From the IMG/VR virus record IMGVR_UViG_2547132418_000015: a stretch of 48,662 nucleotides of DNA. The stretch is one strand, 5' to 3'. The notes beneath the pieces are model-generated. The model saw only the letters and a program-made list of their open reading frames with translations, had not been told where the DNA came from and searched no databases. This document shows, piece by piece, positions 2,660-32,641 of this stretch; position 1 is the first letter of the stretch, and every line of letters begins with the position of its first letter. The position numbers and the translations under genes were made by a program. The stretch is from a virus. Taxonomy: Duplodnaviria > Heunggongvirae > Uroviricota > Caudoviricetes.

Positions 2660-3097
2660 TTAAACCCCGTTAAATGCTGCTTTAAACTCATAAGGAATAA
2701 CGGAACCATCCGGTAATGTCAGTGCAATGTAGAGGTATAACCAGCCCTGATGTAACTGTTCCGCTCTGACGTTAATCGCACTCACCCGGCCCGCTGTTTT
2801 CAGCCATTCCAGCGCCTCTTCGGCATACCCTCTGGCGCGTTCCAGCGTATCCGGTGTGGCTTTTTCACGTGATAACAGCCACAACCGCGAACCGATGGGG
2901 CGGTCGCGGTAACTGTCACCCCACCATCCACGGCGATCATCTGAACCATCCGGCAGCGTGTCAGAATCCAGCGCGCGCCGGTCGGTAAACAGGGAGATTG
3001 TCACATCGGTCGTCAGACTGTCGTCGGTCAGCATATCAATGCCATCCTGTGCAATATCGCCGCGTCCGTTCGTCCAGATAATGGCTAAATCGGTCAT
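2660..3097 (-). CDS. Baseplate wedge protein (Mu gp46-like)
   Basis: 145-aa ORF between the spike and the J-like gene. Confidence 0.7.
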   Translation of the reverse strand: MTDLAIIWTNGRGDIAQDGIDMLTDDSLTTDVTISLFTDRRALDSDTLPDGSDDRRGWWGDSYRDRPIGSRLWLLSREKATPDTLERARGYAEEALEWLKTAGRVSAINVRAEQLHQGWLYLYIALTLPDGSVIPYEFKAAFNGV

Positions 3098-3687
3098 TGC
3101 ATCGGCCCTGTGGTTCCGCCGCTGTCGCCACGGTGGATATGCTTATCCGTCGATTTGCCATTGATGATGGCATCCGGGGCAGTAATATTGCTGTCGAACT
3201 GGCTTTTACCTTTAACGCCCAGACCTTTCTGGATCTCAACGTCGCCGGTAAACGTGGTTCTGGGTGTATCAACGGTCATGCTTTCATCAGCGTAAATCTC
3301 AACCGTTTTACAGGTAATGATGCAGCGCCCGTCCTTTGTCAGCCTGATACGATGCCCCTCGTGGTGGTAAATGCCTGCATCACCCGGTTCAAGATTTGTC
3401 GGGCGGTAGCGGCGGTCTTCCACCACAACGGCAATCCCCTGATCACGTTGTGCACCCACACAGGCAATCAGCGCCTCTGCGCCCGGCAGAGGAACGCTGA
3501 AATGCCCGTAATTTTGCAGGCGCTCCACTTCATCAGATTCCTCATCATCCAGCAGACCGACCTGCAGGTTCTGAACCTTTCGCCCGTCGTTAATCACGTT
3601 AACAACGGCACGCGCAAGCATCAGACGCACACGACGCATCAGCGGTGTCAGCAGGCGGTTCATGGCGGAATCATTTACTCTTTCCAC
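3094..3687 (-). CDS. Baseplate spike/assembly protein (Mu gp45-like)
   Basis: 197-aa ORF following the gp44-like gene. Confidence 0.75.
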   Translation of the reverse strand: MERVNDSAMNRLLTPLMRRVRLMLARAVVNVINDGRKVQNLQVGLLDDEESDEVERLQNYGHFSVPLPGAEALIACVGAQRDQGIAVVVEDRRYRPTNLEPGDAGIYHHEGHRIRLTKDGRCIITCKTVEIYADESMTVDTPRTTFTGDVEIQKGLGVKGKSQFDSNITAPDAIINGKSTDKHIHRGDSGGTTGPMQ

Positions 3688-8956: not shown

Positions 8957-9313
8957 TTATGCAATGCGTTTGCTTTTTTTTGCCGTCAGTACCAGCGAAA
9001 TTTCGCCGCCGTCGTTTTTCGGTTCATCCGCCTGCCAGGCATTCGCCAGCATCCAGGTTTCACCGGTATCAGCCTGGAATTCGACGGTGATGTTTTCCCA
9101 GTCGATAATTTCATCCAGCCCGATGGGACCGCCCCCCGGAATTTTGCATTCCACTTTTGCGGCACGTGGTTTACCTTTCCAGCCATAAACCCGCGAGCCG
9201 GTCACTTCTTCACGGGTGGTGCCGGAAGGCGTGAAGGAGGCACCTTCCATTGATTCAAGCTCCATGCCATTGACACGGATGAACGCCACCCCCTGACGCT
9301 GATTTCCAGCCAT
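8957..9313 (-). CDS. Tail tube protein (Mu M-like)
   Basis: 118-aa ORF directly downstream of the sheath gene. Confidence 0.8.
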   Translation of the reverse strand: MAGNQRQGVAFIRVNGMELESMEGASFTPSGTTREEVTGSRVYGWKGKPRAAKVECKIPGGGPIGLDEIIDWENITVEFQADTGETWMLANAWQADEPKNDGGEISLVLTAKKSKRIA

Positions 9314-22068: not shown

Positions 22069-22140
22069 GCTTCCCTGAAAAAATGCGCTGATGGCAGTCT
22101 AAAAAATCAGATGGCAGGTGCGGGATTATGGTGACAGGAA

Positions 22141-22163
22141 ATAACCGGCAGGATGCCGGTTAT
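22141..22163 (-). terminator. Hairpin at the 3' end of the C gene
   Basis: ATAACCGGCAGGATGCCGGTTAT inverted repeat overlapping the C stop codon; U-tract is weak. Confidence 0.35.
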
Positions 22164-22582
22164 TTTGGGCTTTCAGGTGAGAACAGATCAGGCTGATGAC
22201 GTCGTGTATGCAGCTTTCTCTGGCGGGCAATAATCTGGTAGATCTGCGGCTGGGACAGGCGATACTGGCGACGCAGTTCTTCCATGTTACGACCATTGAA
22301 CTGGCAGTAAAGCAAATCGTCGCGTAACGCGGTCAGGATCGTATCGCCGCAGGGGATGTAAAACTGCCGCCCGCCCAGAAAACAGGACAGGGCAACGGCC
22401 TGTTTACGGGCAAGCTCACGGGGATTGCTGACGTTCTGGCGTTTCAGTTCGTTTTCCAGAATATCAATCAGATCAACCACTGAACGGGGCCAGCGTGATT
22501 CCAGTTCCGGGGCCGGGATGTTATCAATATGCCCGATTAACTGGCGAATTGCCGGATCGTGTTCAAATAAATCATGCTGCAT
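22160..22582 (-). CDS. C: Late transcription activator C (Mor/C family)
   Basis: 140-aa ORF paralogous to the upstream 129-aa Mor-like ORF; located just before lys as in Mu. Confidence 0.85.
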   Translation of the reverse strand: MQHDLFEHDPAIRQLIGHIDNIPAPELESRWPRSVVDLIDILENELKRQNVSNPRELARKQAVALSCFLGGRQFYIPCGDTILTALRDDLLYCQFNGRNMEELRRQYRLSQPQIYQIIARQRKLHTRRHQPDLFSPESPK

Positions 22583-22594
22583 ATTTTCCCCCGG

Positions 22595-22714
22595 TTAACA
22601 GACAAAAAGATACACCACGGCACTGATGGTTATCAGAACCACAAGGGCAATCACTTTTATCGCATTAATCAGCGTGGACGGCCCGAAACATTCATCACTG
22701 AATTTTCTGTACAT
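22595..22714 (-). CDS. Possible 39-aa hydrophobic peptide
   Basis: MYRKFSDECFGPSTLINAIKVIALVVLITISAVVYLFVC with AAAGGGG ribosome-binding site; ends 12 nt before the C start; not in the ORF track. Confidence 0.3.
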   Translation of the reverse strand: MYRKFSDECFGPSTLINAIKVIALVVLITISAVVYLFVC

Positions 22715-22723
22715 GGTGCCCCT

Positions 22724-23086
22724 TTACCCGAACAGACGAGCGCGAAAACGAAAGGAGAGCCAGAACGTCAGCAATCCGGCCAGCGCCCAGATGACATACT
22801 CAGGACCCGTTTTCAGTTGAGACGTTGCCATCACGGCTAATCCCAGCCCGGACAGCCCCCCCAGCCAGGTCAGAGGCCAGACGAACCGGGCAAAATGTTC
22901 AGGCACCCGGCAGCTCATTATCAGCGCATCCAGATAATCACCGGCAACACATAAAGCAACACTGAAAACCGAGGCACAGCAAAACATCAGCGCGCGCCAG
23001 CCACAAAACAGACTTATCCACAATAACAGCGCCAGTAATACCACCGATAAAAAATCAGGCCACTGACGAGCAGAACGCTCAGACAT
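22724..23086 (-). CDS. Integral membrane protein
   Basis: ORF 22724..23137; start at ATG 23086 (MSERSARQWPDFLSVVLLALLLWISLF...) with AGGGAG ribosome-binding site; several hydrophobic segments. Confidence 0.6.
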   Translation of the reverse strand: MSERSARQWPDFLSVVLLALLLWISLFCGWRALMFCCASVFSVALCVAGDYLDALIMSCRVPEHFARFVWPLTWLGGLSGLGLAVMATSQLKTGPEYVIWALAGLLTFWLSFRFRARLFG

Positions 23087-23297
23087 AATGTTTCTCCCTG
23101 TAAAGCAGGCAATGATGAAGAATTTCCGGCATATCAACTGACTGCCAGCCTTTCATGTAATAACTGCCGTGGGTGCCATCATGACCGGTATAGTCGCGGG
23201 GCGCAGGACGTGGCCCACCGGCGACACGGCGCAAAACCTCCTGACGCAGCCGCTCACGTCTGCCAAGATGAAAGGATGCATTCCAGCCTTTACCCAT
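23079..23297 (-). CDS. Hypothetical 72-aa protein
   Basis: ORF with GGGGA ribosome-binding site, overlapping the next gene start by 8 nt. Confidence 0.4.
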   Translation of the reverse strand: MGKGWNASFHLGRRERLRQEVLRRVAGGPRPAPRDYTGHDGTHGSYYMKGWQSVDMPEILHHCLLYREKHYV

Positions 23298-23374
23298 GAT
23301 GATTTTCCCCGGTACGGTTATTCATCACAGGATATTGAGGACGTAAAAAAAGCCGGATTAACCGGCTTTACTGT

Positions 23375-23764
23375 TTACAGAAGTGAGGGCTGGTACTGGC
23401 GGTATTTCAGCCGTCGCATCCGGCGAATGGCTTTGTACACCGTATTGAAAGTGACACCATAACGGGTGGTCAGTTCGCTGACGTTGCGACCGTTAAAATC
23501 ATTCCAGATACGCAAATCCCGAATCAGCGAGTCCAGAACCTGACCGCGTGGAATGTAGACCTGGCCGCCGCCCAGATGCTTACAGATAGCCACAACAATC
23601 TCCAGTGAATGGGCAGGATCAACACCCAGCCGGGACAATTCCCCGCGTAGTAAATCGTTCAGCTCCGCCAGCAGTGCCGGAAAGCGTGACGTATCCTCTG
23701 CGGGATTGTCAAGATGTGCCAGGATGGTGTCATCCTGCAAATCACCAAATAAATCTTCCGTCAT
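23375..23764 (-). CDS. mor: Middle operon regulator Mor (Mor/C family)
   Basis: 129-aa ORF immediately downstream of the GemA-like gene. Confidence 0.85.
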   Translation of the reverse strand: MTEDLFGDLQDDTILAHLDNPAEDTSRFPALLAELNDLLRGELSRLGVDPAHSLEIVVAICKHLGGGQVYIPRGQVLDSLIRDLRIWNDFNGRNVSELTTRYGVTFNTVYKAIRRMRRLKYRQYQPSLL

Positions 23765-24312
23765 TGTGCCATCCTCCGCGTCTTTCTGGCATGGGCATAA
23801 GCCGCCGTCATGGCATCATAGCCGCGCAGTTCACGCCCGGACGGACTGACCGGCAATGGAAGCCCGTGACGGGAAAAGGCTTCACGAATACAGCGGATGT
23901 GCCACTGTTTCAGGGTTTCAAGCACAACCTGCAACGATTCTCCGTGGCACCACGCCAGTGTGGAAACCCCCTGTCCGCCGTTGCGTTTCGCTGTCAGGCG
24001 CTGAACATATTTATCCAGCGCCACATCACCGCCATCGGTAATAAAACCGTCTTCTGCCATCTGCTGCCAGACTTTGTATACCTTCTCGCGGGGAGTGGCA
24101 TACCCCTTAAAGCGGCGACGTGGATGTTTATTCAGCTTCTTAAAGCCGCGTTCTTTCATGGCATCGAGCACCTGTTCCAGTTGCGTGACCGTCAGCTCGC
24201 GGCAACTGGTTTTGCCCGTTTTCTGCATCAGAAAAGCGCGGTAAGTGTCGTCGTCGAGTTGTAGCTCCCGACGGGCGACATGGATTAATTTAATCAGGGA
24301 TGTGCGATTCAT
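23761..24312 (-). CDS. gemA: GemA-like regulatory protein (Mu gp16)
   Basis: ORF 23761..24480; start placed at ATG 24312 (MNRTSLIKLIHVARRELQLDDDTYRAF...) with GAGGTG ribosome-binding site. Confidence 0.8.
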   Translation of the reverse strand: MNRTSLIKLIHVARRELQLDDDTYRAFLMQKTGKTSCRELTVTQLEQVLDAMKERGFKKLNKHPRRRFKGYATPREKVYKVWQQMAEDGFITDGGDVALDKYVQRLTAKRNGGQGVSTLAWCHGESLQVVLETLKQWHIRCIREAFSRHGLPLPVSPSGRELRGYDAMTAAYAHARKTRRMAQ

Positions 24313-24342: not shown

Positions 24343-24759
24343 ATGAAAATTGATTATGACGAGATAGCCAGAATATTTGATGTTTTTCTGGAGGCCGACA
24401 CCGCATTCATTCGACTGGAAGATGTCGGCTGGGATTGTTCTCAGCGGCACAGCGACAGCCATCAGAAGCTGGTTTTCCATCTTCTGTTGCTGGTTGAAAA
24501 TGGTTTTATCAGCAACAGATATCTGGAAACAGGCACCGCAAAAAGCATTGGTCTCACCCCAACAAGCCTCGGATATTCATATTCAGGCACCAGTGTCAGA
24601 CTTACACAAGATGGTCATGATTTTGCGAAAGCACTACATCAAAAACCCATTCTTGAGCGCATAAAACAGGACCTTGCCGACGCCCCGATGACGCTCGTAA
24701 CAGACGTCGGCAAACAGTGGTTAACCTCGTTTCTTAAAAAGAAACTCGGGATTGAATAG
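24343..24759 (+). CDS. Hypothetical 138-aa protein on the opposite strand inside the phage early region
   Basis: ATG with AAGGAA ribosome-binding site; diverges from gemA across a 30-bp gap; 3' end overlaps the 24721..25032 gene by 39 nt. Confidence 0.55.
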   Translation: MKIDYDEIARIFDVFLEADTAFIRLEDVGWDCSQRHSDSHQKLVFHLLLLVENGFISNRYLETGTAKSIGLTPTSLGYSYSGTSVRLTQDGHDFAKALHQKPILERIKQDLADAPMTLVTDVGKQWLTSFLKKKLGIE

Positions 24760-25032
24760 TTCCCTGTTCATACGTTGCAGCGCATCAAGGGCGGCGACAG
24801 CCGCCACTTTATTGTTACCATCAGCAATAGTGCGGAGATTTTCAATAATCCAGTGAGGACTCAGTGACTCAGCAATAATGCCAAACCGGTACGCCATGAC
24901 TTCATCAATAGCTTTTTCATGAGACGACTCATATACAAAACTCACAAAGTCATGCACTTCTTTTTTCGGCAAACCACCGGCAATCAGCAGGGCGGCAAGC
25001 TCTTCTGATTTTGAAAATACACCATTATTCAT
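24721..25032 (-). CDS. Hypothetical early-region protein
   Basis: ORF 24721..25047 (GTG); ATG at 25032 with AAGGTG ribosome-binding site is the likely start. Confidence 0.55.
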   Translation of the reverse strand: MNNGVFSKSEELAALLIAGGLPKKEVHDFVSFVYESSHEKAIDEVMAYRFGIIAESLSPHWIIENLRTIADGNNKVAAVAALDALQRMNRELFNPEFLFKKRG

Positions 25033-25033
25033 A

Positions 25034-25727
25034 TCACTCACCTTCACAATTCATGCACGCCGTGTCATCGCCCATATCGCAGTGGTTGCATTTCTGCCCA
25101 CCACAATGAGGGCACTCTTTCAGATATTCAGGGTTTTCATTACCGCAGGTCGGGCATTCCTGTTTCACCGTGGTGAATGTCCCCAGCCACGAATACGAAT
25201 TTTCACCGACTGTCTTTTTCCCCGTTATTTCTGAATCAGAACTAATACAGTGTTTTTCAACCCATGCCACACGTGCTGAATTCAGGTGGCATCTGGCCAA
25301 TTTGCTTTCGTTTCTGTAATGTTTGCTGTCCCGGTTAAATGGCAATTTCTCATTCAGCCCTGCTGAGATAAAGTCCGCATGTAATTGTTCTAATGCGGCT
25401 TCACTGTCTGCACCGGTTGATTCAAAATAATCGTAAGCATTGGCACATAATCCGGCAGCCCGGGTAAATACATCATCGCCCGTCTCCATTGCCCCATTCT
25501 TTAACCATCGGTTGTAGGCTGTATAAAAACTATAAAGTTGCTTTCTGATACAGGTAGTGGCAGTTCCGCCATTAACTGACGCTGGCGTAACATAGCCAGC
25601 TCTGCATAAAGCAGAACGAAGTATATCCAGAACCTGCCAGGCATCTTCTCCTTCAATCACGCTACAGTTTTTGTACACCAGGACGTCCCGGCCACAACTT
25701 TTATCAATACCCCAGTCTTCAAATTTC
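25034..25727 (-). CDS. Hypothetical protein with C-terminal Cys-rich (zinc-ribbon-like) tail
   Basis: ORF 25034..25792; likely GTG start at about 25727 with GGAGG ribosome-binding site overlapping the upstream stop; C-terminus CPTCGNENPEYLKECPHCGGQKCNHCDMGDDTACMNCEGE. Confidence 0.55.
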
Positions 25728-26258
25728 ACAACCAGCCTCCTGCACCACACCCGGTGCTGATGAAAAATCAATGATGAGATAACGCAGTACATGGTCGGTG
25801 ATATTCCAGGCGCTGGAACTGCAAATAAACCGCCCCAGCCGGATATCGATATAAGCCATCACAAAACGGGGCATTCCCTGTTTGCACATCTCGTCATCCA
25901 CTTCTGCAACGATGTGAACGGACTCACAGGTCAGTACGCCTGTCGCAAACTCTTTTGCCAGTGCGGGGATGGTATTACCTTCCACCCAGGGTAATGAGCG
26001 ACGCCAGTTGCACCACACCGCATCATCAACAGCAGGCTGCTCAGTTGCGTTTCGTCTTACCGGCGGCGTCTGACGCGGGCGCGGAACGTCATAAAATCCG
26101 TTGCATTCGGTGAGCACTCCGGCATCAACCGCATCACGCAGGAAATACACCATTGCGGAGGGTGGCATCTGCATTTTTTCAGCCAGAACCCCGCAGGTCA
26201 GGCGTCCGTAAGCCCGTAATAATGTGCTGACACCATTCAGAATTTTTGCATCAACCAT
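25719..26258 (-). CDS. Hypothetical early-region protein
   Basis: 179-aa ORF with GAGGA ribosome-binding site. Confidence 0.6.
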   Translation of the reverse strand: MVDAKILNGVSTLLRAYGRLTCGVLAEKMQMPPSAMVYFLRDAVDAGVLTECNGFYDVPRPRQTPPVRRNATEQPAVDDAVWCNWRRSLPWVEGNTIPALAKEFATGVLTCESVHIVAEVDDEMCKQGMPRFVMAYIDIRLGRFICSSSAWNITDHVLRYLIIDFSSAPGVVQEAGCEI

Positions 26259-32302: not shown

Positions 32303-32641
32303 CAACCAGGTAATAGCTAAGACATAAACTTCACTCCAGGCAATTACATATGTAAGATACCCAAACAGTGATGATTGTTTTTGACACACATCACTTGCTG
32401 AAAGCCTGGTTGTTACCGTTTTTGAAGCATTTTTGAAGCTGTACTTGAAATGATGCGTGAAGTAATTGCTTTTCGTGTCTTTAATGAATCAAAAGCTGTT
32501 TCCAACAATCTTTCGCGTTTCAAGATGTAACGGCTAAAATCTGTCCTACAGGCTTGCAAGCCCCACTAAATCTAATCCCGCCAAATCCCGAATAATCCAA
32601 TGTCCTCCCGGTTTTTTTCGTACTTCAAGTGAATCAATACA
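32303..32641 (-). other. Prophage left end with transposase binding sites; terminus at 32641
   Basis: Minus strand from 32641 reads TGTATTGATTCACTTGAAGTACGAAAAAAACCGGGAGGACATTGG...; repeated TTTTCGT-type motifs. Confidence 0.85.

Follow-up and report, generated by a model that had tools for sequence, protein, structure and literature searches.

The middle operon of bacteriophage Mu is transcribed from Pm, a promoter that has been characterised experimentally (Mu 9163-9233) and that combines a dyad centred at -43.5 with a -10 element, without a -35 element (PMC4390567, PMC4287176). A single Mor-dependent mRNA that ends after C is described in the literature cited in PMC4287176 and PMC9239132. 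GenBank annotates gp18, gp19 and gp20 in both Mu and D108, so the gene cluster itself is already known, and all three genes have been reported to be dispensable, with gp19 and gp20 not needed for plaque formation and lysis in the laboratory (PMC9239132). A holin/antiholin role for gp19 and gp20 was put forward by Samanta et al. 2021 (as cited in PMC9239132). In a test with DNP treatment by Chamblee et al. 2022, neither gp19 nor gp20 nor the pair killed cells on induction, in contrast to lambda S105 and phage 21 S68 (PMC9239132).

The window analysed here, a stretch of DNA 48,662 nt in length, is a Mu/D108-type prophage whose early region is D108-like with additional accessory genes. From mor to C it is 98.6% identical in nucleotide sequence to Mu and 98.2% identical to D108 (GQ357916), and the order mor, Pm, gp18, gp19, gp20, C and lys on one strand is that of Mu. 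A preliminary description made from the letters alone had placed three ORFs of 72, 120 and 39 aa in this stretch, the smallest ending 12 nt before C, and all three were found where it put them, on the minus strand. The comparison to Mu gp18-gp20 that it proposed gave protein identities of 98.6%, 96.7% and 97.4%, indicating that these are the same genes. The 72-, 120- and 39-aa ORFs are, as judged by sequence, gp18 (E18), gp19 (E19) and gp20 (Mup20) of bacteriophage Mu. They differ from their Mu counterparts by six amino acid substitutions, which are H23R as the only change in gp18, A49G, C51Y, S77G and H97Y in gp19 (seven nucleotide differences), and S37F in gp20. Genes, order, overlaps and spacing are the same as in Mu (AF083977 / NC_000929) and D108, and Pm is identical.

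All features of the region lie on the minus strand. The gene for the Pm activator, mor (gp17; 23375..23764), encodes 129 aa, matches Pfam PF08765 Mor (E = 4.1e-33), is annotated in AF083977 as "middle operon regulator" and differs from Mu Mor by a single residue (A76V). The first middle-operon gene is gp18 (23079..23297; 72 aa; phrog_2121, E = 5.5e-36), followed by gp19 (22724..23086), which encodes a 120-aa membrane protein with four predicted helices (phrog_4975, E = 7.3e-73), and gp20 (22595..22714), which encodes a 39-aa single-pass membrane peptide (phrog_19823, E = 2.6e-30); the PHROG matches of all three are full-length. The last middle-operon gene, encoding the late-gene activator C (gp21; 22160..22582, with its ATG at 22582), matches the Pfam Mor family (E = 2.4e-33), is annotated in AF083977 and differs from Mu C at two residues. 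The gp18 and gp19 frames overlap by 8 nt (ATGTCTGA) and the gp20 stop is separated from the C ATG by 12 nt, both as in Mu. The length of 120 aa is counted from ATG; a 137-aa ORF started at TTG is only a mechanical upstream extension. A Shine-Dalgarno (SD)-like G-run is present 6-12 nt 5' of each of gp18, gp19 and gp20. That the ORFs exceed chance follows, on sequence grounds, from the PHROG matches and from retention of the 39-aa ORF in 28/28 Mu-type loci, in one of which it is 38% identical. This small ORF had been called unannotated, which holds for RefSeq/PGAP records (E. coli LY180) but not for the GenBank entries of Mu (AF083977, NC_000929) and D108, where it is gp20. PGAP systematically leaves gp20 out, which is a small annotation gap.

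Pm was located at 23312..23382 by transfer of the AF083977 feature 9163-9233 ("middle promoter, activated by Mor"). Between positions 23231 and 23537 the window shows zero nucleotide differences from Mu, and its Pm matches the annotated one of Mu letter for letter. The Mor-binding dyad AGTAA-AGCCGG-TTAAT, with its position of -51 to -36 taken from PMC4287176, is at 23357-23372; from the annotated feature and the published dyad numbers, the -10 hexamer TATCCT would be at 23329-23334 and +1 near 23321. These dyad and -10 positions are in line with PMC4287176 and PMC4390567. A terminator-like hairpin (AAAGCCGG/CCGGCTTT) with a T-run at 23349-23369 overlaps Pm. In 95 of the 98 related loci, the Pm core, 70-90 nt 5' of the gene that opens the operon, is conserved at 22/25 positions or more. 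Since Pm lies between mor and gp18 and is not displaced, gp18-gp19-gp20-C constitutes a Mor-activated middle operon. The ORFs are catalogued non-essential Mu genes downstream of Pm, and the finding is therefore ordinary; as originally stated it adds little, with the promoter where the literature puts Pm and the holin idea tested and rejected.

The region had also been described as a membrane-protein cluster. This fits gp19 and gp20, two small inner-membrane products, but not gp18, for which Kyte-Doolittle windows gave no strong hydrophobic segment. gp18 is soluble, basic (net charge +5) and three-helical, with an AlphaFold2 model at pLDDT 85.5. The multi-pass character proposed for the 120-aa ORF and the hydrophobicity of the 39-aa ORF were both borne out by hydropathy. 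gp19 has several hydrophobic segments, its GenBank note gives an N-in/C-in topology with 4 TM, and its AlphaFold2 model contains four helices at low confidence (pLDDT 58.5). gp20 has one strong hydrophobic segment (residues 21-39, mean 2.96), and its GenBank note records a clean TM in N-in/C-out orientation as the prediction of both Phobius and TMHMM.

Scans of gp18, gp19 and gp20 against Pfam, NCBIfam and PADLOC were empty even at E <= 10 or <= 1 (PADLOC, E <= 1), so that no match naming a function was found in these three collections, and a literature search on Mup18/19/20 and E18/E19 returned unrelated papers only. The Pfam copy scanned with gp18 did not include PF26867, a family that appears in precomputed annotation of gp18 homologues. 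A PDB sequence search with the gp18 profile gave no match at E <= 10, and a fold search of its model against PDB and BFVD gave nothing at E <= 0.001; the best fold matches (RNA polymerase omega and uncharacterised phage proteins) had TM values of 0.2-0.58 and were not significant. gp19 is nearly an orphan, with 5 matches among 1.84 billion representatives.

The genes differ in their rates of change. Between the Mu-type sequences and the divergent locus L033, dN/dS was 0.05 for gp18, indicating strong conservation, 0.07 for mor, 0.11 for C and 0.40 for gp20, while gp19 is 36% identical to its L033 counterpart with dS saturated. The conservation of gp18 equals that of the regulators Mor and C. 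The presence of gp19 among phages is patchy, and the full cluster was found in 20 of 41 positive E. coli genomes.

For the comparison we used a set of 98 loci, all of which were found through gp18, and the apparent universality of gp18 is therefore partly an ascertainment effect. About 70 of them have the arrangement GH108-gp18-(4TM)-p201-TraR-DUF2730 without C, 11 have GH108-gp18-(gp19)-gp20-C-lys22, and 17 are Mu or SfMu forms. The GH108 + PG_binding_3, TraR and DUF2730 assignments were confirmed by Pfam. The 201-aa protein, p201, gave repeated sub-threshold matches to GTA_holin_3TM (E = 3e-4 to 0.08) and a weak PHROG holin match. A complete phage genome of the GH108/p201 type carries one Mor/C-family gene and has no gp19, gp20 or gp22. 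The Mu-like prophages of Klebsiella, Raoultella, Pluralibacter, Kluyvera, Serratia and Brenneria (e.g. Kp4866-3, OK490420) share with Mu the gemA-mor backbone and a Pm-like core, followed by a gp18 orthologue 58-68% identical to gp18, a 4-helix membrane gene and, further 3', TraR and DUF2730 genes like Mu gp24 and gp25. They differ from Mu in having a GH108 endolysin gene 5' of gp18 and the 201-aa holin-like protein after the 4-TM gene, and in lacking gp20, C and the gp22 SAR lysozyme. The phrog_2121 profile covers both gp18 and p201, and a gp18–p201 fusion was therefore considered as a candidate; no clean fusion was present among the loci and it remains a hint. In "Type A-prime" loci a 380-nt gap persists with no fusion, and the gp18–p201 arrangement of L016 is probably a frameshifted MAG.

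The membrane gene after gp18 needs separate consideration. The proteins encoded at the gp19 position are 115-136 aa long with several hydrophobic segments, and gp19 and the 135-aa 4-TM family (phrog_12596) of the GH108-type cassettes have in common their genomic position, a start overlapping gp18 and a four-helix topology. The 8-nt overlap between the ATG of this gene and the gp18 stop, as found in Mu, recurs in five of the distant loci examined; a GTG is found there in two, and three are arranged otherwise. hhalign of gp19 with phrog_12596 gave a probability of 1.8% (E = 0.027) and the two belong to separate PHROGs, so that homology between them was rejected as unproven and the link depends on position and topology. 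gp19 is most likely a dispensable membrane partner, and gp18 most likely acts in the cytoplasm, as an accessory or regulatory factor in the envelope/lysis programme.

The Muviruses of the SfMu, PhiR68_1 and Yersinia vB_YpM types share with Mu the backbone mor-Pm-gp18 ... gp20-C-lys, with gp18 82-92% and gp20 92-97% identical, and differ in the absence of gp19. In these phages, gp20 starts at the would-be gp19 start and overlaps a gp18 that is 4 residues longer. gp20 was found in 14/14 Muvirus records, and in 28/28 loci it lies directly 5' of C. The spacing is 10-12 nt in 27 of these; the remaining one, L030, is a natural variant with a 3' frameshift in gp20 that runs into C. Descent of gp20 from the 201-aa holin-like protein as a remnant was also considered and was rejected on negative hmmsearch scores.

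In bacterial and phage operons generally, translation of an upstream ORF can unmask the ribosome-binding site of the gene that follows, which couples the two. The gp20–C junction resembles such cases in that gp20 ends shortly before C and the predicted partners of its last ~8 codons, in a candidate coupling hairpin (22574..22618, minus strand), are the SD and AUG of C; it differs from them in being a prediction without covariation support. The 81-nt local fold at this hairpin has -24.2 kcal/mol (z = -2.5), with 3/200 shuffles folding equally well, and the stability of a larger 181-nt fold was no better than that of shuffles (z = -0.06). The predicted probability that the C AUG is unpaired was 0.03-0.04 in five of six Mu-type sequence variants, 0.37 in the frameshift variant L030 and 0.83 in L033, where the SD alone is partly paired. 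The predicted masking of C is thus seen among near-identical sequences and is not reproduced in L033. gp20 may possibly couple C translation; an obligatory coupling role is argued against.

The best explanation of the cluster as a whole, which we hold with moderate confidence, is that gp18-gp20 are Mu middle-operon genes of accessory character that derive from a lysis cassette, with gp20 possibly coupling C. Pm, dependent on Mor, would drive co-transcription of gp18, gp19 and gp20 with the late activator C, and the close packing or overlap of the genes makes translation in series probable. gp18 is a small, strongly conserved cytoplasmic three-helix protein, and gp19 (four helices) and gp20 (one helix) are fast-evolving, laboratory-dispensable inner-membrane proteins that are not holins. 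The ancestral Pm operon in this phage group may have been a lysis cassette consisting of GH108 endolysin, gp18, a 4-TM protein, the GTA-holin-like 201-aa protein, TraR and the DUF2730 releasin. On the branch leading to Mu, the holin-like gene would have given way to a single module comprising gp20, C, gp22 (the SAR lysozyme) and the spanins; loss of the GH108 gene would have followed, leaving gp18 and gp19 as surviving cassette members. Translation of gp20 may open the hairpin that would mask the ribosome-binding site and start codon of C. The cassette origin is suggested by the comparison of loci, which is unrooted, and we infer the direction of the changes from it.

Other readings of the cluster fare less well against this evidence. 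That the promoter for C lies inside or just 5' of the 39-aa ORF, which would then merely overlap it, has next to no chance of being correct. The idea arose solely because the ORF lies so near C, and we found no support for it. Pm with its dyad and -10 element, annotated and characterised, lies ~600 nt 5' of gp20 and before gp18; no sigma-70-like or Mor-dyad-like site was found within gp20 (22595-22714); and the 12-nt gp20–C gap contains the C SD alone. With Pm 5' of gp18, the preliminary suggestions that the ORFs occupy the place of the Mu middle promoter and that the small ORF overlaps it are both incorrect. A further reading makes gp19 and gp20 the holin/antiholin pair of Mu, timing lysis by making the inner membrane permeable to the endolysin. 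We regard it as very improbable, and it is already largely refuted. As with lambda S105/S107 and phage 21 S68/S71, the products are small, sit in the inner membrane and have their genes close to that of an endolysin. One or more transmembrane domains are predicted for each of gp19 and gp20 (hydropathy, the GenBank notes and, for gp19, the AlphaFold2 model), in class-like topologies of 4 TM and 1 TM; the proposal of Samanta et al. and the place of the relatives' gp19 position inside the lysis cassette also favour a holin pair. Unlike those holins, gp19 and gp20 are encoded by middle rather than late genes, which belong to the Pm operon and precede both C and the late promoter Plys instead of forming part of a late lysis cassette (as in PMC9239132). 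They are reported to be dispensable for lysis (PMC9239132), and they match no holin family in Pfam, PHROG-lysis or NCBIfam, nor does gp20 match the p201 family. In the published test, gp19, gp20, both, or all candidates jointly were non-lethal with DNP, and DNP delays Mu lysis and does not trigger it (PMC9239132). In addition, SfMu-type phages naturally lack gp19 yet form plaques, and Mu relies on the SAR endolysin and the gp25 releasin. The suggested holin/antiholin role thus fails the published DNP test, and what survives of it is a lysis-type context in comparative form, with gp18 and the gp19-position 4-TM gene of relatives placed between the GH108 endolysin and the holin-like protein.

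Two readings concern the membrane proteins and gp20 in particular. gp19 and/or gp20 could be superinfection-exclusion or anti-defence membrane proteins of the lytic phase, which, while Mu replicates, would keep the DNA of competing phages out of the cell or counter membrane-acting abortive infection. Fast evolution, patchiness, narrow distribution and laboratory non-essentiality are typical of accessory conflict genes. gp19 and gp20 are small and fast-evolving (36-38% identical between Mu-type and L033 where neighbouring genes are 70-88% identical) and non-essential in the laboratory (PMC9239132), and the patchy occurrence and very narrow distribution of gp19 point the same way. Against this, PADLOC and the other family searches gave no match, the conserved lysis-cassette position suggests otherwise, and expression depends on Mor and Pm with no internal promoter found, so the genes would be silent in lysogens, where exclusion usually matters; dependence on a Mor-activated lytic promoter disfavours exclusion in the lysogenic state. 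On balance an exclusion or anti-defence role is improbable. Slightly less so, and still unlikely, is that gp20 is not a functional protein and is instead a short upstream ORF or accidental frame kept for C expression or as a recombination junction. Its close spacing to C and the predicted masking of the C SD and AUG would fit this, as would the frameshift in L030 and the fact that a random 39-codon frame is open ~15% of the time, (61/64)^39. The differences among close variants are few and almost all non-synonymous, so that purifying selection on the peptide is weak or unproven, and the first 27 nt are 25/27 identical between Mu-type and L033 without a synonymous change while the rest has diverged, which argues for constraint at the nucleotide level. 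However, start codon, length (40 aa), the N-terminal motif MYR[KR]FS[DN]EC and the hydrophobic helix have all been retained in the 38%-identical L033 orthologue, dN/dS is below 1, the SD (AAGGGG) is good, the TM prediction is clean, and the hairpin is not conserved in L033. A homologue search with this 40-aa orthologue yielded only 3 close clusters.

Returning to the derivation from a lysis cassette, a bolder version of it is possible but doubtful in our judgement. Insertion of gp20, C, the SAR lysozyme and the spanins into an older Pm lysis cassette would have given rise to both the holin-less lysis and the three-tier cascade of Mu, gp18 would be a functional envelope/lysis regulator, and gp20 would act both as a membrane peptide and as an ORF gating C translation. 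The occurrence of gp18 and a gp19-position membrane gene in a GH108/holin-type cassette of most relatives offers a starting point on the holin-free lysis of Mu as well as on the roles of its "non-essential" middle genes. In the Yersinia Muviruses vB_YpM_5 and vB_YpM_6, Pm and gp18 are separated by an extra gene for an endolysin of the GH108 + PG_binding_3 kind.

The three open reading frames lie on the minus strand at 23079-23297 (gp18, 72 aa), 22724-23086 (gp19, 120 aa counted from its ATG) and 22595-22714 (gp20, 39 aa), where the preliminary description had placed them; a 137-aa form of gp19 in the ORF list is a mere TTG-started upstream extension. gp18 and gp19 overlap by 8 nt (ATGTCTGA), gp20 starts 9 nt past the gp19 stop, with 12 nt separating its end from the ATG of C, and a G-rich Shine-Dalgarno-like run precedes the ATG of all three. 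The suggested comparison with Mu gp18-gp20 showed that these are the same genes: 22100-23800 aligns ungapped with bacteriophage Mu (AF083977, NC_000929) at 98.6% identity (24 differences in 1701 nt), and with D108 at 98.2%. The encoded proteins differ from those of Mu by H23R in gp18, A49G, C51Y, S77G and H97Y in gp19, and S37F in gp20; Mor carries A76V and C carries V41I and T138S. The curated Mu record lists the genes as Mu_18 ("also known as E18"), Mu_19 (E19; N-in/C-in, four transmembrane domains) and Mu_20 (N-in/C-out, one transmembrane domain), flanked by mor (Mu_17) and by C (Mu_21) and then the SAR endolysin gene gp22, and the D108 record annotates genes 18, 19 and 20 likewise. All three matched PHROG families over their full length (E = 5.5e-36, 7.3e-73 and 2.6e-30 for gp18, gp19 and gp20) and had no match in Pfam, NCBIfam or PADLOC. 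Hydropathy gave one strong hydrophobic segment in gp20, several in gp19 and none in gp18, which bears out the hydrophobic 39-aa frame and multi-pass 120-aa protein described earlier; both gp19 and gp20 are predicted to be membrane proteins. The cluster is therefore Mu gp18-gp19-gp20, downstream of an intact middle promoter Pm and upstream of C, a known feature that had been annotated earlier. At gp18 codon 23 (23229-23231) the window has Arg, an allele common to four IMG/VR contigs, where Mu, D108 and eight of eight more distant aligned homologues have His.

The 39-aa frame had been called unannotated, which holds for RefSeq/PGAP and the 1991 left-end record M64097 but not for the GenBank Mu and D108 records; the description probably arose because the former lack gene 20. 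The omission by PGAP from E. coli Mu prophages, for example LY180, is a systematic small-ORF annotation gap. An instance among the E. coli RefSeq genomes is the gp20 ORF at 1189-1329 of L099 (NC_022364).

The cluster had further been supposed to occupy the place of the Mu middle promoter, with the small ORF possibly just overlapping it. The Mu record maps the "middle promoter, activated by Mor" to 9163-9233, which corresponds to 23382-23312 in the window, between the mor stop codon (23375-23377) and the gp18 ATG (23297), and from 23231 to 23537 there is not one nucleotide difference from Mu. Since Pm is upstream of gp18 and identical to that of Mu, the promoter premise was wrong. Pm lacks a -35 element but has a recognizable -10 hexamer, and its 16-bp Mor-binding element at -51 to -36 consists of two 5-bp inverted repeats, contacted by a Mor dimer, flanking a G/C-rich hexamer (PMC4390567, PMC4287176). 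AGTAA-AGCCGG-TTAAT at 23372-23357 matches this published description, and by coordinate transfer TATCCT (23334-23329) would span -13 to -8, with +1 near 23321. Overlapping this site, at 23369-23349, is a terminator-like hairpin plus T-run. No sigma-70-like site or Mor-type dyad was found within or beside the gp20 ORF. Promoter overlap is effectively refuted; gp18-gp20 are downstream of Pm and form the middle operon together with C.

The other interpretation, a holin/antiholin function, has a published counterpart. In Mu, transmembrane domains are confined to the products of genes 19, 20, 23 and 25 (Chamblee et al. 2022, PMC9239132), and gp19/gp20 were proposed as a holin/antiholin pair by Samanta et al. 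2021, as cited there. Cells in which gp19, gp20, both, or the whole candidate set were induced with arabinose stayed viable after DNP, whereas lambda S105 and phage 21 S68 killed them (PMC9239132). Chamblee et al. 2022 concluded that Mu has no holin and that its SAR endolysin is freed via the gp25 "releasin" (DUF2730), and according to this literature gp18-gp20 are dispensable and are not holins (PMC9239132). Proposed in 2021 and tested negative in 2022, the holin/antiholin reading is thus a published, unsupported hypothesis, and it is effectively refuted. A lytic-phase exclusion or anti-defence role is a rival candidate.

The distribution of the genes was examined by sequence searches. A search of 5.8 billion proteins returned six gp19 clusters at 65-97% identity, and exhaustive HMMER against 1.84 billion representatives gave five matches, just one of them distant (36% identity, E = 5e-5); gp19 is almost an orphan. 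The range of gp18 is wider, with homologues of 58-68% identity in Enterobacter, Pluralibacter, Citrobacter, Klebsiella, Raoultella, Kluyvera, Trabulsiella, Serratia and Brenneria. Among complete E. coli genomes, 41 of 5,426 contain the region, 20 of them in the full gp18-gp19-gp20 form. Architecture was assigned by tblastn in 98 loci, each with a gp18 homologue. About 64 loci, a count that includes truncated ones, have the order gemA-mor-...-GH108-gp18-4TM-p201-TraR-DUF2730 without C (4TM, a four-helix membrane gene; p201, a 201-aa holin-like protein), and six more share this GH108-type architecture, except that the gene occupying the 4-TM slot went undetected. The remaining forms are gp18-gp19-gp20-C-lys22 as in Mu (11 loci), gp18-gp20-C-lys22 as in SfMu (6), GH108-gp18-gp20-C-lys22 (8) and GH108-gp18-gp19(-like)-gp20-C-lys22 (3); gp19 and GH108 are thus patchy. 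A Pm-core element (AAGCCGGTNAATCCGGCTTTTTTTA, at least 22/25) is located 70-90 nt upstream of the first operon gene, gp18 or GH108, in 95 of the 98 loci; the other three lack a comparable match, and one of them, L012, is a contig fragment of 943 bp. In one of the gp19-like pair L033 and L034, the Pm core hairpin is partly duplicated in tandem (...GCCGGTTAATCCGGGAATCCGGCTTTTTTTACGCCCTCAATGCCGGTTAATCCGGCTTTTTTTA) in the interval from mor to the GH108 gene. Directly after mor and ahead of the Pm-like element, L006-L018 have a hypervariable slot (e.g. L006 1325-1822, L010 1488-1817) for small, mutually unrelated proteins, secreted or membrane-bound and 109-171 aa long, that vary by prophage and look like moron-type cargo.

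In the GH108-type cassette, Pfam assigned the 186-193-aa protein to Glyco_hydro_108 plus PG_binding_3, the 76-aa protein to zf-dskA_traR and the 100-aa protein to DUF2730. p201 (phrog_1544) had a weak PHROG holin match and repeatedly fell below threshold against PF11351 GTA_holin_3TM (E = 3.2e-4, 0.022 and 0.08; best score 21.6 bits, cut-off 24.8). In five distant loci the 4-TM gene begins 8 nt ahead of the gp18 stop, exactly the gp19 arrangement in Mu; two further loci have a GTG at this position, and three (L015, L017, L018) are arranged otherwise. Profile-profile comparison detected no homology between gp19 and the 4-TM family (probability 1.8%). The complete 33-kb Klebsiella phage Kp4866-3 (L100) has the GH108 form with a single Mor/C-family gene and no homologue of gp19, gp20 or gp22. 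This phage and about 70 GH108-type loci have one Mor/C-family gene each, with no C homologue between the lysis and head genes, and spanin genes were not recognised in the lysis cassettes. A single Mor/C-family gene without C implies a two-tier rather than three-tier transcription cascade in GH108-type phages. We infer that in this phage group the Pm operon began as a lysis cassette; gp18 and the gene in the gp19 position would be its remnants in Mu, and the gp20-C-gp22(-spanin) block would be peculiar to the Mu lineage. This context is a modest addition to known, annotated genes.

Rates were compared between L019, identical to the window, and L033, the most divergent Mu-type locus. Amino-acid identity and dN/dS were 88% and 0.07 for mor, 83% and 0.05 for gp18, 70% and 0.11 for C, and 38% and 0.40 for gp20; gp19 was 36% identical with dS saturated. 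gp18 is therefore as constrained as the two regulators, and gp19 and gp20 are fast-evolving. In the IMG/VR contig L021, which does not otherwise differ from the window, the gp19 match at 2712-3072 is split between two reading frames, which suggests a frameshifted, possibly decaying gene and would fit weak constraint on gp19. AlphaFold2 modelled gp18 as three helices (pLDDT 85.5, pTM 0.72; 9-sequence alignment, two of five models confident), with no significant structural neighbour in PDB or BFVD and no sequence relative in PDB, and gp19 as four helices at low confidence (pLDDT 58.5). gp18 probably retains an envelope- or lysis-related regulatory role.

Among the 98 loci, gp20 was found only where C is present and directly upstream of it (28/28), with 10-12 nt from its stop to the C ATG in 27; the exception is a frameshift variant running into C. 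Almost every change among close gp20 variants is non-synonymous, and a 3' frameshift occurs in one of them. The L033 orthologue retains the start codon, a 40-aa length, the N-terminal MYR[KR]FS[DN]EC and the hydrophobic helix. Its first 27 nt (3092-3118) match those of Mu-type gp20 (22688-22714) at 25 positions with zero synonymous changes, against only about 38% protein identity over the remainder of the ORF, which points either to constraint on the nucleotide sequence or to a recombination junction. These 27 nt double as coding sequence for the gp18 C-terminal tail in SfMu-type phages. The last ~8 gp20 codons are predicted to pair with the Shine-Dalgarno and AUG of C (22618-22574; -24.2 kcal/mol, z = -2.5, equalled in stability by 3 of 200 shuffles), leaving the AUG with an unpaired probability of 0.03-0.04 in five of six Mu-type variants, whose near-identity means that this recurrence is not independent evidence. 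The predicted L033 fold differs, with the Shine-Dalgarno partly paired and the AUG open, and over a 181-nt context the stability did not exceed that of shuffles. That C is translationally coupled to gp20 is therefore a reasonable but unproven idea, and gp20 may help gate C translation.

Elsewhere in the window, a block at 24343-26258, upstream of gemA within the semi-essential early region, is at least in part without counterpart in Mu/D108 (query coverage 63% and 49%). It contains four ORFs of unknown function: 138 aa on the opposite, plus strand (24343-24759; phrog_585), 108 aa (phrog_1988), a Cys-rich 252 aa (25034-25792; phrog_6418) and 179 aa with the Mu Gp11 C-terminal domain (PF25754). 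The prophage left end is near 32641, equivalent to D108 coordinate 1. The match to D108 begins at position 1 and that to Mu only at ~1519: the repressor/early region is D108-like, not Mu-like, which makes the element a Mu/D108 mosaic. Past the left end are ~16 kb of non-phage flank.
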